A stretch of 64,000 nucleotides of DNA from an uncultured Leptospirales bacterium. Its GTDB lineage: Bacteria; Spirochaetota; UBA4802; JAKQUI01. The position numbers were made by a program, and so were the translations under genes. This document shows, piece after piece, positions 7,062-62,906 of this stretch. Position 1 is the first letter of the stretch, and the number at the start of each line of letters is the position of its first letter. The stretch lies in assembly GCA_964652955.1 (NCBI GenBank), contig CAZZCF010000001.1, positions 12,555 through 76,554 on the forward strand. The letters are read 5' to 3'. The notes under the pieces were generated by a model that worked only from the letters and a program-made list of their open reading frames with translations, did no database searches and was not told the origin of the DNA.

Positions 7062-8486
7062 ATGCTGAAGCATCGAGCGAAAATATACCTCAAGAGCATC
7101 ATCAGGAAGATGCTATTCTTCTGCAGCGACATCTCGCTGCTGCTGTTATCATTCCTGATCGCCTATCAGGTCAGGGATATACTCTACGATGCCGGGCTGC
7201 TGATCATTCCCAATCCGCCGGTGCAGTACTTTTATCCCTACTGGTATCTTCTCCTCTTTCATATACTCTTTCTCTTCGTGTTTGATCTCTACCGCCTCCG
7301 CTTCCCCTACTGGCTCGAGGTGAAGAAAACCGTAAAGGCGATTGCGGCGGGAACCGTCTCGATATTTTTCATGCTCGCCCTTTTGAAGATATCACAGGAG
7401 GTGTCGAGATTTATCATCCTCTTCATCGGGCTCTTTGCCGCGCTGGCCATACCGGTTCTCCGGGCGCTGGTGAAATTTCTCCTCTTCAGGTTGAACCTGT
7501 GGCAGGCTGATGTCCTCGTCATTGCGAATCCCGACGCTGACTTCGACTCCTTCTATGAACGCCTTAACGAGAACTGGTATGTGGGATACCGGCCGGCCCT
7601 TCTCATCGATGTTTCCTCCATGGAGCGGACCGCTCTGTCCGAGGCGCTTTCCCATGTGCAGCTTGAACATATGATACGTGAGAACAATATCGTCCTGCCG
7701 ATACTCTACAAGCTGGATAAGAATGAGTTCTACGATATCTTCATCAGGATGGATATATATTTCGAGGATATCAAGCTGATTCCCGATCTGCACTCCCTCT
7801 TCGTAAACAACGTTCGTGTCGAAAACGACGGCAGCACTATCTATATCAACTTCGAAAACAATCTCCTGCGCTACAACAATCGGCTGCTCCAGTATCTCTT
7901 CAACAAGATTGCGAGCATTCTCATCTTCCTGTTCCTCCTGCCCCTTTTTGTGCTCCTCGGGGTGCTGATCAAGCTCGATTCCCGCGGTCCGGTACTGTAT
8001 CGAGCGCGGCGTATCGGCGCTGATAAAGCAGACTTCGATGTCTTTAAGTTCCGGACCATGTTCCGGGACGCAGACAGGAAGCTCCACGATATACTCGAAT
8101 CCGATCCGGCGCTCAGAAGGGAGTTCGAGCGGAGCTTCAAGCTCAGGAACGACCCCCGGATAACCCGTGTCGGCAGGTTCCTCAGAAAGACCTCCCTCGA
8201 TGAGCTCCCGCAGATCTTCAACGTGCTCCGCGGCGAGATGAACCTGGTCGGCCCCCGGCCCATCGTTCACGAGGAGATCGAGAAGTACGGAAATGCCTTC
8301 GATGAGCTCATGAAGGTAAAGCCGGGCGTAACCGGCCTCTGGCAGGTGAGCGGCCGGAGCGATGTCGACTACGAGAAGCGGGTGCAGCTTGACCTCTTCT
8401 ACATCAAGAACTGGTCTCTCTGGATGGATATTACGATTCTGATGAGGACCGTTCTCGTTGTCCTCGGGGGGAGGGGGGCCTATTGA
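7062..8486 (+). CDS. Undecaprenyl-phosphate sugar phosphotransferase (WbaP/WcaJ family, bacterial sugar transferase domain)
   Basis: C-terminal '[11 protein letters not shown]...[21 protein letters not shown]' is the hallmark of polyprenyl glycosyl-phosphotransferases; N-terminal TM block precedes it. Confidence 0.9.
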
Positions 8487-9796
8487 ATACGACCGGTCAT
8501 TCATGGGCGTACCGGTGGTCCTTTTACTCACTCTGCCTCTTTCTCCTCTTCTCCGGGATATCAATATCGGTTTCGCAGGGCGCCCTGATCCTTGCAATAC
8601 TCCTGTGGCTGCTGGGAAGGGTTTTGAAATATGATGATACTGTCTATTATCGGAGCGGCCTGGAACGCTATGTTCTCCCCTTCTATGTTATCTCCTTTCT
8701 GCTCGCCTTCATATCTTCACCCGCAATTAAGGGGAATCTGCTCTATTTGAAGGATACTGGGCTTGCAGTTCTCTGCTTTCTGGTTCCTTCGATGCTGCGG
8801 CGGAGAGAGGAGATGTCGAGAATAGTAAAGATTATTATCTTCATCGCTCTCTTCAATTCGGTTGTCGGCATCGCGCAGTATCTTACCGATATCGACTTCA
8901 TGAATGCATTCAGATACGGACTTTCCGACAAGAGAGCTTACCTGAGCTACGGGAATCGCCATGTCGTCGGTTTCCTCGGACATCATCTGACCTATGGCGG
9001 TTATATGATGATGATAGCAATACCCTTCATCTATCTGAGCTTTGTGAAGGAGGGTGAGAAGAAGGAACGGCTTTTCATAAAGGTTTCGGCCCTCCTCTCA
9101 GCCCTGTCAGTTATTCTCAGCTGGGCGCGCTCGGTTATTGTCTCCCTTCCCTTTGGAATTCTCCCGCTTCTGTTCAGAAAGAAGAAGGTTTTTTTCGCGC
9201 TCTTTTTCTCTCTGATATTGGTTGTCATCACCATCTTCACGCATTTCGGCCCCGAGGAGGGAATTGTAAAGAATTTTCAGGATCACAGCACACAACTTCG
9301 TGTTGTCATGTGGGAAGCTGCTTTCAGGACCTGGCTGAAGCATCCCTTCTTCGGCACCGGCGGAGGGAACTATCTTGAGAAGTTCAGAAAAGAGGTGGGG
9401 CCCATTTCGAGCAGGCCCGAGCAGCGAAAGCTGATGATAAAATCGAAACATTACAAGTGGGGGCTTCGAATGCTGGTGAGAAAGGGTTCGCATCCCCACA
9501 ACGACTATCTCAATCAGCTGGCGCGGAAGGGTATTATCGGATTTCTCGCGTACCTCTATATGCTCTTCGGAATCTTCAGGTATATGAGTGCAGGCGTGAA
9601 GGATATTGAGGACAGATTCTACCGGCATCTCGCCATGGGGCTCTTCGGCGCCTACTGCACATTTCTCGCCGCGTCGATGTTCCAGTGCTACTTCACCGAT
9701 GAGGAGAACCTCGCCATGTTCTGGTTCACCGTCGGGCTTTTCGCTGCCGTCGTCAGGGTGGTGAATGCGGAGAAGGTTAAGCAGAATTCTGATTGA
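8483..9796 (+). CDS. O-antigen ligase (Wzy_C) domain membrane protein
   Basis: Polytopic protein containing 'SHPHNDYLNQLARKGIIG', the conserved H-N-x-Y-L motif loop of the WaaL/O-antigen-ligase family. TTG start overlaps the upstream stop as TTGA. Confidence 0.75.
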   Translation: MNTTGHSWAYRWSFYSLCLFLLFSGISISVSQGALILAILLWLLGRVLKYDDTVYYRSGLERYVLPFYVISFLLAFISSPAIKGNLLYLKDTGLAVLCFLVPSMLRRREEMSRIVKIIIFIALFNSVVGIAQYLTDIDFMNAFRYGLSDKRAYLSYGNRHVVGFLGHHLTYGGYMMMIAIPFIYLSFVKEGEKKERLFIKVSALLSALSVILSWARSVIVSLPFGILPLLFRKKKVFFALFFSLILVVITIFTHFGPEEGIVKNFQDHSTQLRVVMWEAAFRTWLKHPFFGTGGGNYLEKFRKEVGPISSRPEQRKLMIKSKHYKWGLRMLVRKGSHPHNDYLNQLARKGIIGFLAYLYMLFGIFRYMSAGVKDIEDRFYRHLAMGLFGAYCTFLAASMFQCYFTDEENLAMFWFTVGLFAAVVRVVNAEKVKQNSD

Positions 9797-9834
9797 TCAA
9801 TTCATTTTATAGCAGTGTGAAGCCCTGTTGTTAT

Positions 9835-9926
9835 GTCATTGCGAGCGCAGCGAAGCAATCTTTGTTCATTTAAAAGAGGTTTTTAATAAATATAGATTGC
9901 TTCGTCGCGGTGCTCCTCGCAATGAC
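9835..9926. repeat. Imperfect inverted repeat: GTCATTGCGAGCGCAGCGAAGCAATC ... GATTGCTTCG..CTCGCAATGAC
   Basis: Read directly from the sequence; the two arms are reverse complements with an internal indel, separated by an AT-rich spacer of about 35 nt. Confidence 0.7.
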
Positions 9927-9983
9927 AATGTGTGAAAAAATGTTAATAGCCACTGATAGCTTATAGCCGATCACCCTTCAGGC

Positions 9984-10029
9984 TCTCAATGACATGGCGC
10001 GCTCGCGTCCTCGAGGGGCTCGCAATGAC
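9984..10029. repeat. Two further copies of the CTC(G/T)CAATGAC motif around a CCTCGAGG palindrome
   Basis: CTCTCAATGAC at 9984 and CTCGCAATGAC at 10019, the reverse complement of the GTCATTGCGAG motif seen at 9835 and 10900. Confidence 0.6.
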
Positions 10030-10037
10030 GTTCCTTA

Positions 10038-10904
10038 CTATCTCTCACATTGAACAGCATATCTCCCATCCGGAAAAACCGTGACCACAATCGTTCCGTC
10101 CCTGTACGTCCGATAGACCTTCGCTGTTCGCGTATACCTTTGAATAACTTTATCAGCCGGATAGCCGTTGATGTTTCCTTTATTGACGCTGATGATAACC
10201 GTCTCGGGCTTCACCGCTTCGATGAATTCAACAGTGGCCGTATCCAGCGCACCGTGATGGCCAGCTTTCAGAATATGCGCTTTCAGATTGACGCCCCTTT
10301 TCAGGAGCTCCCCCTCGGTGATACGATTTCCATCGCCCATGAGGAGGCATCGGAAAGTGCCGAACTCCAGCATGCAGACAAGTGAGCCGGTATTCCAGTC
10401 GGCGCTTCCTCTGCTTTTCGGCGGCCAGAGCACGGTCAGAGTGATGCCGTTAAAATGCAAGCGGTTGCCTGCACCGAGCGGCTCGTATTTCGGGTTTTCT
10501 CTTACCAGGTCACGGTACCAGCGGAAGAGCGGCTGCTCTTTTGCATGCCTGTTTATATCCTCGCCGTTATCGTAAATATGATAGAAGGGAATGAGCTGTG
10601 CAATGGCAAAGATGCCTCCCATGTGGTCCGGATGGGGATGGGTGAGGATGATATGACCAATCGTGCCGATGTGCTGTTTCTGCAGATATCTCAGGAGGCG
10701 AACGCCGGTTATCGGATTCCCCGTGTCGACGAGAATGCACTCCTTCGATGTACGGATGAGAATGGCGTCGCCTTCGCCAACATCGATGAAATGTATGCTC
10801 AGTTTCTCCGGAGGAGCGGTTTGGTCTGTGGCACAGGATAGTGCTTGAAGAGCGAACGAAATGAATATCGCTGACAGAAGAATTTGTTTTGTGCAAACAG
10901 TCAT
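10038..10904 (-). CDS. MBL-fold metallo-hydrolase, ComEC/Rec2 C-terminal-domain-like, probable lipoprotein
   Basis: 'HIILTHPHPDHMGG' HxHxDH metallo-beta-lactamase motif and a signal peptide ending 'ALSCATDQ'. Start is placed at Met23 of the track ORF (ATG 10904), because the upstream 22 codons lie inside repeat element 10900-10956. Confidence 0.75.
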   Translation of the reverse strand: MTVCTKQILLSAIFISFALQALSCATDQTAPPEKLSIHFIDVGEGDAILIRTSKECILVDTGNPITGVRLLRYLQKQHIGTIGHIILTHPHPDHMGGIFAIAQLIPFYHIYDNGEDINRHAKEQPLFRWYRDLVRENPKYEPLGAGNRLHFNGITLTVLWPPKSRGSADWNTGSLVCMLEFGTFRCLLMGDGNRITEGELLKRGVNLKAHILKAGHHGALDTATVEFIEAVKPETVIISVNKGNINGYPADKVIQRYTRTAKVYRTYRDGTIVVTVFPDGRYAVQCER

Positions 10905-10981
10905 TGCGAGGAGCCGCAGGTGATTCCTCGACATGCTCGGAACAGGCTTTGCAATCTTTTCAAACGTCATCTCAATGCGAG
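10900..10981. repeat. Third member of the GTCATTGCGAG...GCAATC element family, plus a GTCATCTCAATGCGAG variant
   Basis: It starts GTCATTGCGAG and ends GCAATC exactly as the 9835 copy does. Its longer core carries a CGAGGA/TCCTCG inverted repeat. Confidence 0.65.
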
Positions 10982-11386
10982 TGATCTGTTGATCCGCATA
11001 ATCTCAATCTCGTACAGGCGGCAGGTGAGTGAAAAGCATGTCGCGTATTTCTCAAAGTCTCTGCACGTTAAAAGAGCCCGATTATAACTTGTTCGATGAT
11101 CGGAATTTGCCAATGCGAATACGGTGGTGCTCTATGAATTGAGCCACCAATAAGCATATAAGCTCTCAAAATGTATTTGTCAAGATAAATCAACTCTGCT
11201 GCGTTTATACACTGTGCAGATTATATTCAATGAAGACTTGACAGCCCGCAAAACATTATCTATCATGCAATCCTGCTATCCTGTCCAATTCTTTTCTTTT
11301 CACATGATTGAGGCTGATATGCTCGTGTGGAATGCGCTACGGGAATTCGTCTTTTCGAAGGCAGAAATAAAAAGGGGATTATCTGA

Positions 11387-11419
11387 CAGGATTACAGGAT
11401 AGATAACAGGATTACAGGA
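11387..11419 (+). repeat. Tandem direct repeat ACAGGATTACAGGA (2 copies, 5-nt spacer) immediately upstream of rfbA
   Basis: Exact 14-mer appears twice; the second copy supplies the AGGA Shine-Dalgarno 8 nt before the rfbA ATG. Confidence 0.8.
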
Positions 11420-11427
11420 AATCCGAT

Positions 11428-15291: not shown

Positions 15292-17938
<2,647 letters not shown>

Positions 17939-61517: not shown

Positions 61518-62585
61518 TCAGAGCCGCTCCTGTATGTACTTGGTGAGTATGTTTCGGGCGGGATCTGACATCTCCAGGAGGCGGAAGGTGTAGTACGAAA
61601 CGCTCTCCTCGGTGATGGTCCTGTCGGAGATGACCTTTGAGGTAATGTTTATCTTGAACTCCGAGAGCTCGAATTGCAGCGAGTAGCTCTTCTCGTAATC
61701 CAGCTTCTCTGCGACGCGCACTATCGCCTCGAACTCGTTCATCTTGTAAATAGTGCCGTTTATTTGTACAGCTTCACCGAGCCCGGCTTCCTCCTCCGCT
61801 TTGAGTTCGGTTATGATACATGAGATGATCGTATCGATGTAGGGATGGCGCTCCTCTTCACCACGGGTGAAGACATCGGGGAGGGGAATGCCTATCAATT
61901 TATTTTCAACAGTGGCAATGGCAGTATCAAAGGTATATTCGGCATCTCCCTTTCTCCAGAGATATACCCTGATCGGCTTACCGGCGAAGTCCCTATATTC
62001 GCCGGGATTGCGAAACAGCTTAACGGAGAGCATCTTGTCCTTATTCCCGATGACGCGGCCGATAAAGACATCATTCTCTTCGGTGAAGAAACAGAGGAGG
62101 ATGTCGGTCTCGAGATCGGTTAGGCGATCCAGCGTTTTTTTAACGCTCTTTCGGTGATAGAGCTTTTCATAGGTTTTAATGATGTCGATGCTTATCTGAT
62201 GGAGTGATTCCTGCAGCTCTTCCTGCTCACGCAGAAACGGTAAAAAGCTTCCCAGGGATAATTCAAAGAGATCCGGATTCTGCAGGATATTAATGGAATC
62301 CTTGAGTTTCAGCATATTTGCCAATCCGTTCAGAATCTTGATCTGGTAATTGGAGAGCCCGAGCTGCTTCGTCTTGAAGAGGAAGAGCTGTTCTGCATGC
62401 ATCTTCTTCTTTTGCAGGTAGTGATTGTACCTGAACAGTATGAGAAAGGCGAGCACAAGGAGTACTACCAGGATGATGAGCACCATTTCGATTGCAGAGG
62501 GAACAGGCCATTTCACACCCCATACCGTTTCTATCATGATGAGGCACTCCTGCTTTTTTTTACGCCCGCAGGTGCCGTGTAGCAA
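61518..62585 (-). CDS. Membrane-anchored protein with YcgR/PilZ-like C-terminal region (weak)
   Basis: One TM helix ('MVLIILVVLLVLAFLILF'), then a beta-rich region loosely resembling YcgR-N plus PilZ; the RxxxR / DxSxxG motifs are not canonical. Start is uncertain. Confidence 0.35.
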   Translation of the reverse strand: MLHGTCGRKKKQECLIMIETVWGVKWPVPSAIEMVLIILVVLLVLAFLILFRYNHYLQKKKMHAEQLFLFKTKQLGLSNYQIKILNGLANMLKLKDSINILQNPDLFELSLGSFLPFLREQEELQESLHQISIDIIKTYEKLYHRKSVKKTLDRLTDLETDILLCFFTEENDVFIGRVIGNKDKMLSVKLFRNPGEYRDFAGKPIRVYLWRKGDAEYTFDTAIATVENKLIGIPLPDVFTRGEEERHPYIDTIISCIITELKAEEEAGLGEAVQINGTIYKMNEFEAIVRVAEKLDYEKSYSLQFELSEFKINITSKVISDRTITEESVSYYTFRLLEMSDPARNILTKYIQERL

Positions 62586-62906
62586 TCGATTTATTGAACC
62601 TGTCGACGCAGGTGGGTACCTTCATGATAAGCTTCAACCTTCTTCTGCCGAGGAAGCTTGATCTCCACTTTCAGATTCAGGTTCCCTTCATTTTTGCTGT
62701 TGGCTCAAAAATGCAAAATACTATCACGTGCACTGCAGGCTGTTTGATAAGATAACAAAACAGGGTGAATAAAAGCAATTAAAAAATAAATTTTATCGAT
62801 GGAATCACGATTGAGGAGGGCTAAAAAAAGGTGGACAGACGCCGTTGCGCACTGTAGGGTACCTTGCCGCGGATATATACGGATATATTTGTACGGGAGT
62901 ATTTAG

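Follow-up and report, generated by a model that had tools for sequence, protein, structure and literature searches.

Clustered hairpin repeats beside a metallo-β-lactamase-fold gene of an uncultured Spirochaetota bacterium: probable orphan units of an Ssn-nuclease-associated repeat family

Introduction

In a stretch of DNA of 64 kb from an uncultured Spirochaetota bacterium (hereafter, the window), a short sequence, GTCATTGCGAG, recurs in both orientations next to and inside a gene for a metallo-β-lactamase (MBL)-fold protein, which raises the question of what these repeats are and whether they serve that gene. An earlier note on this DNA had described them as an inverted-repeat family with the behavior of repetitive extragenic palindromic (REP) sequences or of miniature inverted-repeat transposable elements (MITEs), and had suggested that one copy supplies or regulates the translation start of the MBL gene. 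We argue here that the copies are probably gene-less orphan units of a hairpin-repeat family associated with Ssn-type nucleases, and that each unit would be a single-stranded DNA site of a putative cognate nuclease of this type. The kind of system is known, as related repeats were cataloged in 2013 (PMC3733652) and a mechanism was described in 2025 (PMC11893778). The present class nevertheless departs in its hairpin architecture from both published definitions and is missed by the search pattern of the later study. The window contains one complete dimer of units, two partial or variant units, and one unit that lies in frame within the MBL gene.

A repeat family distributed across bacterial phyla

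Exact copies of GTCATTGCGAG are found at 9835-9845 and 10900-10910 on the plus strand and at 9916-9926 and 10019-10029 on the minus strand, all within 1.1 kb of the 64 kb, and a fifth copy with one mismatch is present at 9983-9993 on the minus strand. The earlier count of at least five copies, in both orientations and within 1.2 kb, is thus borne out, with one position corrected from 9984 to 9983. When up to one mismatch is allowed, the window has seven matches where 1.34 +/- 1.05 are expected, a number that was reached in 0 of 100 shuffles; the remaining one-mismatch matches (428 and 7518) have no other feature of the repeat unit.

This unit was defined by a family scan for GTCATTGCGAG-N4-24-GAAGCAATC with one genome per species, which returned at least 120 stretches whose phyla were taken from the record titles. 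It consists of a [T/C]GTC tag, ATTGC, GAG, a variable mini-hairpin, GAA, GCAAT, and a C(C/T)N tail, family tails reading ...GCAATC-CAG or -TC. The matches listed come from at least 14 phyla, and the taxa among them include Alpha- and Gammaproteobacteria, Desulfobacterota, Bacteroidota, Ignavibacteriota, Chloroflexota, Cyanobacteria, Melainabacteria, Patescibacteria, Planctomycetota, Omnitrophota, Zixibacteria, Latescibacterota, Gemmatimonadota, Armatimonadota, Bacillota, and Campylobacterota. From the ~270 half-sites among the matches listed, 97 convergent pairs with the GTC ends outermost can be formed, the usual span being 70-120 nt and most pairs measuring 70-99 nt, and the two arms of one dimer are mostly unequal in insert length.

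The segment between the conserved blocks varies across the family, with insert lengths of 3 to >100 nt, yet it forms a small hairpin itself. The commonest 6-nt inserts among the matches listed (CGAAGC 27, CGCAGC 13, CGTAGC 6, CGGAGC 4) all yield the arrangement G-C-GNA-G-C, and they are followed by a 12-nt class, GAGC-NNNN-CGAC, and then by stems of greater length, for example CCGCC-AAC-GGCGG; in the family members L047, L068, and L084, the insert is long and of the GAGCC...GGCTC type. Mini-hairpins of the d(GCGNAGC) type are unusually stable in DNA, a stability that the energy model used here misses. The likeness to REP sequences drawn by the earlier note holds, as the units are short, tagged, and imperfectly palindromic, pair up in most cases as inverted dimers, lie for the most part between genes, and belong to a very large family with at least 120 stretches in each of two collections.

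The second collection, the predicted viral contigs of IMG/VR, contains the repeat pattern frequently (at least 120 stretches, including L214-L293), and among the matches listed only L213 encodes a relative of the nuclease discussed below. One family member, L003 (a Logan contig of SRR6963311), begins at TATGTCATTGCGAG, 3 nt before its first unit, consistent with the repeat breaking short-read assemblies. The units also give rise to recurrent pseudo-peptides across the family (VIASEAKQS, ...SLRAKRSNPE, and ...PRNDG). A full-text literature search for the 11-mers and the encoded peptides returned unrelated primer matches or nothing.

Association with a GIY-YIG nuclease gene

One of 120 pattern-derived loci, L066 (Planctomycetota), has a 96-aa GIY-YIG gene (PF01541, E = 5.9e-18) exactly between a plus-oriented and a minus-oriented unit. 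The protein has thousands of relatives, the best matches being ~65-74% identical and the few organism-named ones coming from several phyla. This link was examined independently in 80 metagenomic loci that were chosen solely on protein similarity, with the 11-mer accepted at up to one mismatch. The 11-mer is present within 200 nt of the GIY-YIG gene in 79 of the 80 loci and on both of its sides in 72, and the motif density of 9.17/kb within 200 nt of the gene exceeds that beyond 500 nt (0.17/kb) by 53-fold. The base 5' of GTC in the cassette-flanking units is T in 75 and C in 19 of 111 cases.

In these cassettes, two inverted units, tags outermost and tails inward, lie tightly round a ~95-aa single-domain GIY-YIG gene. 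The stop codon of this gene often overlaps the downstream tail (TGAGATTGC), indicating that gene and repeats form one compact element of ~0.4 kb. Tail-to-tail dimers such as that of the window would correspond to the cassette without its gene, with the polarity retained.

The nuclease gene connects the family to the Ssn system of Neisseria, in which the repeat known as NTS (CGTCATTCCCGCGMAVGCGGGAATCYRG) is bound and cut by SsnA in single-stranded DNA only and on one strand only (PMC11893778). SsnA is itself a ~95-aa single-domain GIY-YIG protein with a repeat-flanked gene, it is inactive on RNA, and its homologs are widespread and mostly have similar flanking hairpins; the Ssn system lowers transformation by repeat-bearing DNA (PMC11893778). 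The L066 protein and the N. gonorrhoeae SsnA ortholog are 44% identical in a gapless alignment (pairwise E = 2e-26), in which Y9, Y20, and E67 of the former lie opposite Y6, Y17, and E64, the catalytic residues of SsnA that were mutated in PMC11893778. A tblastn comparison with the N. gonorrhoeae SsnA locus gave 43.8% identity over 93% coverage at E = 9e-17, which is within the homolog definition of that study (>75% coverage, E < 1e-10). The gene of the N. gonorrhoeae ortholog carries canonical NTS copies on its flanks. Other homologs are flanked by CGTCATCCCCGCGAAGGCGGGGATCCAG in Azospirillum and by TGTCATTCTGAG-TGAAAC-GAAGAATC in Planktothrix, the latter with the architecture of the window units and a compensated stem, and to judge from their sequences these flanks are intermediate cases in a graded series that leads to NTS.

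The Planktothrix locus (L206, Planktothrix agardhii plasmid p1, NZ_LR882964.1, 18450-19513) combines the SsnA-like gene with arrays of flanking units. There the gene has an MmeI-type restriction-modification gene on one side and drmA, which encodes the DISARM helicase, on the other, a defense-island context.

Relation to described repeat systems

The present class and the NTS/dRS3-SsnA system, including the Ssn-related motifs (SRM) of other bacteria, have in common a [C/T]GTC tag followed by AT, a hairpin that ends in ...AATC(C/T), a preference for inverted pairs, the repeat-gene-repeat order round a ~95-aa GIY-YIG gene, and orphan copies that are clustered round other genes. They differ in the hairpin itself. 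Whereas that of NTS is an 8-bp perfect stem with a 4-nt loop, units of the present class pair over 5 bp at the base (ATTGC/GCAAT), above which a purine-rich GAG/GAA internal loop leads to an apical mini-hairpin that varies from 4 to >100 nt, and their protein clade is unusually conserved, as the identities among the best matches to the L066 protein indicate. The SRM pattern, HGTCWYN(0-2)YYVSBRHN(0-5)WNVSBRGN(0-2)RNCYNB (PMC11893778), is an operational search string rather than a functional definition; it matches the Neisseria and Azospirillum flanks and has no match at the Planktothrix locus with its window-type architecture.

A further likeness is to the CGTC-tagged REPs of the 2013 catalog. 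These have a CGTC/TGTC (or CCTC) tag, a stem that opens with A-T pairs, a CCA-like unpaired tail, and a mostly inverted dimeric arrangement; they occur in five phyla including Spirochaetes, are intragenic in some cases, have no linked transposase, and include Neisseria dRS3 and Rickettsia RPE-4/RPE-6 (PMC3733652). The tag, the A-T stem start, the short tail, and the pairing into inverted dimers, often heterodimers, are all shared with the present class. In contrast, the families described there have a contiguous 8-9-bp stem and a 4-5-nt loop, where the present class has five pairs, an interrupted stem, and a variable insert. The present sequence is not among the intragenic peptides named in the text of the catalog, its Figure 2 aside (PMC3733652). 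Rickettsia RPEs likewise insert in frame into genes, although these are genes other than that for the MBL protein.

The units of the window

A structure-aware scan of the window recovers as canonical units only 9835-9860 and 9895-9926, where shuffled sequences average 0.17 matches. Together, these two complete units form an inverted, tail-to-tail dimer of 92 nt (9835-9926) which, as its arm inserts differ (6 nt versus 12 nt), is a heterodimer. The remaining copies, at 9966-9993, 9994-10029, and 10900-10956, are variant or partial units that keep the tag-proximal half and have a tail half that has diverged or is missing (Table 1). The base preceding GTC-ATT is T in three copies (9834, 9927, 9994), C in one (10030), and A in one (10899), and the tails of the window units are CTT and CTA. 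The earlier note had recognized two full elements, at 9835-9860 and 10900-10956, with the same start, GTCATTGCGAG, the same end, GCAATC, and an internal insertion in the second. The shared ends and the difference in insert (6 nt versus ~37-40 nt) are correct, but the second is a variant with a weakened tail rather than a full element. The additional variant copy that it had placed at 10966 is not a unit at all, as GTCATCTCAATGCGAG is the conserved region of the MBL start and aligns with the related genome L204, used here as a comparison locus, which is free of a unit at this site.

Table 1. Repeat units and neighboring genes in the window.
Feature	Position	Strand	Description
Complete unit, left dimer arm	9835..9860	+	(t)GTCATTGCGAG-CGCAGC-GAAGCAATC; GCGCAGC is a GNA-type mini-hairpin; commonest family architecture
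Dimer spacer between the two tails	9861..9894	.	34 nt, A+T-rich; loop of the long hairpin; collinear with the L204 dimer spacer
Complete unit, right dimer arm	9895..9926	-	(t)GTCATTGCGAG-GAGCACCGCGAC-GAAGCAATC (minus-strand reading); 12-nt insert, second commonest class of the family
Right dimer arm, plus-strand reading after the spacer	9895..9926	+	GATTGCTTC-GTCGCGGTGCTC-CTCGCAATGAC
Variant unit	9966..9993	-	GTCATTGAGAG-CCTGAAGG-GTGATCGGC; tail half divergent; L204 ortholog GTCATTGCGAG-CCCGAAGG-GTGATCAGC
Partial unit, 8 nt past the MBL stop codon	9994..10029	-	(c)GTCATTGCGAG-CCCCTCGAGGACGCGAGCGCGCCAT; no recognizable GAAGCAATC tail; no clear L204 counterpart
Long-insert unit (~37-40 nt), weakened tail TTTGCAATC	10900..10956	+	Antisense within the 5' end of the MBL open reading frame; encodes ~IAKPVPSMSRNHLRLLAMT; absent from the L204 ortholog
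Not a unit: GTCATCTCAATGCGAG, conserved sequence round the ancestral MBL start	10966..10981	+	Aligns with L204 (...TTGAGATGACG), unit-free there
Wzy_C-type (Wzy-like) gene	ends 9796	+	
MBL-fold open reading frame	10970..10038	-	ComEC/Rec2-like by source names, secreted or lipoprotein; 310 codons; Lactamase_B, E = 3.3e-16
rfbA	starts 11428		

The repeats are not confined to this site. The earlier note had regarded an absence of further copies outside the window, together with a lack of conservation in related genomes, as refuting its proposal, and a DNA-motif scan over another ~15 kb of this genome revealed a second dimer, with arms ATTAC..GTAAT, ~1.6 kb beyond the window end, so that this objection does not arise. 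The enolase of the window is ~80% identical to proteins of Spirochaetota MAGs, which places the DNA in this phylum rather than in the Chlorobi, and the same DNA recurs in several metagenome assemblies. Three further metagenome contigs of the same population are identical to the window across 9780-11020 and are thus uninformative on the gain or loss of units.

Two observations concern the surroundings of the units. A sequence, GGTGATTCC, with CAC ~5 nt after it, borders the outer side of the GTC tag in several Spirochaetota copies (~2339-2347 and ~2470 in L204, and ~16553-16561, minus strand, in L212) and is also present within the long insert of the 10900 unit (10919-10927 in the window); the repeat may have been extended by this sequence in the lineage concerned. 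The units also create a spurious open reading frame of 67 aa at 10884-11087 on the plus strand (MFCANSHCEEPQVIPRHARNRLCNLF...).

Which hairpin is conserved

Two hairpins can be drawn for a dimer, a short one within each unit and a long one in which the arms pair with one another across the spacer. The long hairpin is strong, with a predicted energy for 9835-9926 of -44.3 kcal/mol (z = -6.3) when folded as RNA and of -28.3 kcal/mol (z = -7.4) when folded as DNA. The comparison with L204, in which the order Bac_transf-Wzy_C-repeats-MBL is kept and both an orthologous single unit and an orthologous dimer are present, is informative in this respect. The arms of the L204 dimer read ATTCC..GGAAT and ATCGC..GCGAT, so that each unit can still pair with itself but the two arms no longer pair with one another, indicating that the unit hairpin and not the long hairpin is the selected structure, as in the Neisseria NTS. 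The nuclease-flanking units agree with this, as they have 21 doubly compensated stem cells (for example ATCGC/GCGAT, ACTGC/GCAGT, and ATTAC/GTAAT) as compared with 1.7 +/- 1.2 in permutations (maximum 7 in 2000), a control that ignores kinship among the copies.

The inserts of the two dimers appear in swapped order, being 12 nt then 6 nt in the window (9835-9926, read on the minus strand) and 6 nt then 12 nt in L204 (2355-2445), with collinear spacers. This pattern suggests that arms may have been replaced by, or converted from, other copies, and not altered by point mutation alone.

A proposed role as single-stranded DNA sites

These findings are consistent with the following sequence of events. 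When DNA becomes single stranded during replication, uptake, or repair, each unit would fold by itself, and the folded unit would be the binding and cleavage site for a putative cognate Ssn-type nuclease encoded elsewhere in the genome. Cutting by this nuclease would maintain and spread the family and could modulate the recombination of repeat-bearing DNA. Two by-products could be expected in the window: the dimer would equip both convergent transcripts with a strong 3'-terminal hairpin, and the intragenic unit would lengthen the n-region of the MBL signal peptide and add an ATG.

Several results weigh against this interpretation. The window, like the further ~15 kb of this genome that was scanned for the DNA motif only, showed no Ssn-type gene; within the window, neither a regular-expression search nor phmmer --max found a GIY-YIG open reading frame. 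A good tail half is missing from three of the five copies, which may be inert relics. The SRM pattern has 0 matches in the window. Finally, by nearest-neighbor DNA energies a single unit folds at -2.7 kcal/mol (z = +0.9), no better than shuffled sequence, as compared with -8.9 kcal/mol (z = -3.9) for the Neisseria NTS. Support for the unit stem thus comes from covariation, with the kinship among copies left uncorrected in its control. Membership of the copies in the family, the tight linkage of this family to an SsnA-type gene, the homology to the characterized enzyme, and the stem covariation are shown by the comparisons above. The reading of the window copies as orphan units of an Ssn-associated family nevertheless appears to us the probable one, with the nuclease of this genome and its cutting of the present repeats being predictions drawn from the family as a whole.

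Alternative explanations

The repeats might instead act at the level of RNA, the dimer serving as a bidirectional terminator or 3' stabilizer for the convergent transcripts and the unit at the 5' end of the MBL gene regulating or supplying its start. The position of the dimer between the convergent stop codons (9796 and 10038) and its predicted stability as RNA speak for such a role, the in-frame ATG of the 10900 unit would be followed by a signal peptide of typical length, and many repeats of the cataloged kind lie downstream of genes, where they are plausibly transcribed, as noted in PMC3733652. A terminator scan of both strands, however, found no site at 9835-9926, and no T/U-run follows the hairpin. 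The compensatory changes in the L204 dimer preserve the pairing within units and break the one between arms, and the MBL ortholog, at 77% identity, lacks the 5' unit and has a start that aligns with the upstream ATG. Moreover, the orientation of the units relative to genes is unconstrained, and the family is defined by its association with the gene for a DNA nuclease whose Neisseria counterpart does not act on RNA. A primary function in RNA is, therefore, unlikely, whereas RNA-level effects as a side-effect of the repeats are plausible. Across the window, Rfam at its gathering thresholds reports only 6S RNA, and for 9700-11300 a search by E-value gave only sub-threshold matches to microRNA-precursor-like hairpins.

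Mobile-element explanations differ in the enzyme that they invoke. Classical REPs or REPINs are maintained by a REP-associated tyrosine transposase (RAYT) of the IS200/IS605-type Y1 class, and they resemble the present class in many ways: tagged imperfect palindromes that form single-stranded DNA hairpins, inverted doublets as in BIMEs, intergenic positions, many orphan copies per genome, and the "REPtron-like" bracketing of an enzyme gene. Their tag is GTAG and their enzyme an HUH Y1 transposase, in contrast to the (C/T)GTC tag of the present class and the GIY-YIG gene that is bracketed in 79 of 80 loci, and REP sequences are usually lineage-specific whereas the present repeat is nearly identical across phyla. 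Unbiased clustering of the open reading frames within 400 nt of orphan units produced only repeat-derived pseudo-ORFs and Bradyrhizobium synteny and no enzyme family, so no other protein recurs near orphan copies in this clustering, which included no dedicated Y1-profile search. CGTC-type repeats also lack a linked transposase in PMC3733652. Maintenance by a RAYT is very improbable. An origin as MITEs, that is, as remnants of insertion sequences with a DDE transposase that move by cut and paste and leave target-site duplications, deserves just as little credence, even though the 92-nt dimer has inverted termini, the family is dispersed across genomes, and Correia and Nezha MITEs share with it small size, inverted-repeat ends, hairpins in transcripts, and sites beside or inside genes. 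The MITE-like behavior proposed in the earlier note is not supported: no direct-repeat duplications are evident in the flanks of ~70 dimers inspected, no transposase recurs beside the copies in the clustering, no DDE parent was seen, and the full-length element encodes a 95-aa nuclease and not a transposase. Unlike the arms of a Correia or Nezha element, each arm here is an independently conserved hairpin with covariation, and the inserts of the two arms usually differ in length. A chance cluster or a local duplication with no wider meaning, which the confinement of the motif to 1.1 kb of the window might suggest, is refuted by the shuffling result, by the copies that other phyla contain in the hundreds, and by the second dimer of this genome, and the orthologous copies in L204 likewise speak against it.

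The MBL gene and its surroundings

The repeats sit within a polysaccharide-synthesis cluster, where the gap between the convergent Wzy-like and MBL genes holds the dimer and two further units, and the MBL gene itself contains the fifth unit in its 5' end. The earlier note held that the start codon is embedded in this unit. An in-frame ATG is indeed present within it, at 10904-10902 on the minus strand, but the first ATG of the open reading frame is at 10970-10968, where it aligns with the start codon of the unit-free L204 ortholog. Because the window gene has, in addition, 42 in-frame nt more than that ortholog at its 5' end, the unit at 10900-10956 appears to have been inserted in frame on the 3' side of the ancestral start, in the n-region of the MBL signal peptide. 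It spans 19 codons and adds ~14 net codons and a second in-frame ATG to this region. As initiation at 10904 would yield a signal peptide of the length typical of homologs, a shifted start, or a part for the unit in translation initiation as the earlier note had proposed, is conceivable from the sequence as a secondary effect; the lack of the unit in L204 argues against an essential or ancestral role at this gene.

The surroundings of the MBL gene differ between the two genomes. In L204, a HepT-like toxin and MNT (Polbeta nucleotidyltransferase) antitoxin pair (555-1335) lies directly upstream of the MBL ortholog, whereas in the window the next gene on this side, across 10971-11427, is rfbA, indicating that these surroundings are a variable spot in the polysaccharide cluster. 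Elsewhere in the window, a full-length 6S/SsrS RNA (RF00013) was identified at 62560-62744 on the minus strand (94.8 bits), and a 401-codon open reading frame at 7392-8597 on the minus strand, antisense to the Bac_transf gene (7062-8486, plus strand), is most likely a spurious long antisense frame.

Implications

A very common yet unnamed repeat can now be tied to the Ssn nucleases described in 2025, and the mismatch between its architecture and the published search motif suggests that this motif undercounts Ssn-associated repeats. For those who annotate genomes, the units are of practical concern, since they break assemblies, create false open reading frames (VIASEAKQS and ...PRND peptides), and can shift apparent start codons. 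In the window, the repeats would not be a dedicated regulator of the MBL gene but orphan copies of a selfish or domesticated hairpin-repeat system, which removes a false lead.

Whether a clade of Ssn-type proteins, very large and highly conserved, recognizes and cuts the GTCATTGCGAG...GAAGCAATC class with its distinct hairpin grammar, and so has a new specificity for cutting single-stranded DNA, is a proposition that we regard as evenly balanced. It would provide a candidate new pair of nuclease and site for single-stranded DNA tools. If it is true, the presence of a nearly identical repeat and gene in at least 14 phyla and of the repeat in many predicted viral contigs would point to the recent spread of a minimal selfish cassette across phyla, a cassette that seeds orphan hairpins as it goes, including in-frame insertions into genes such as that in the MBL signal peptide.

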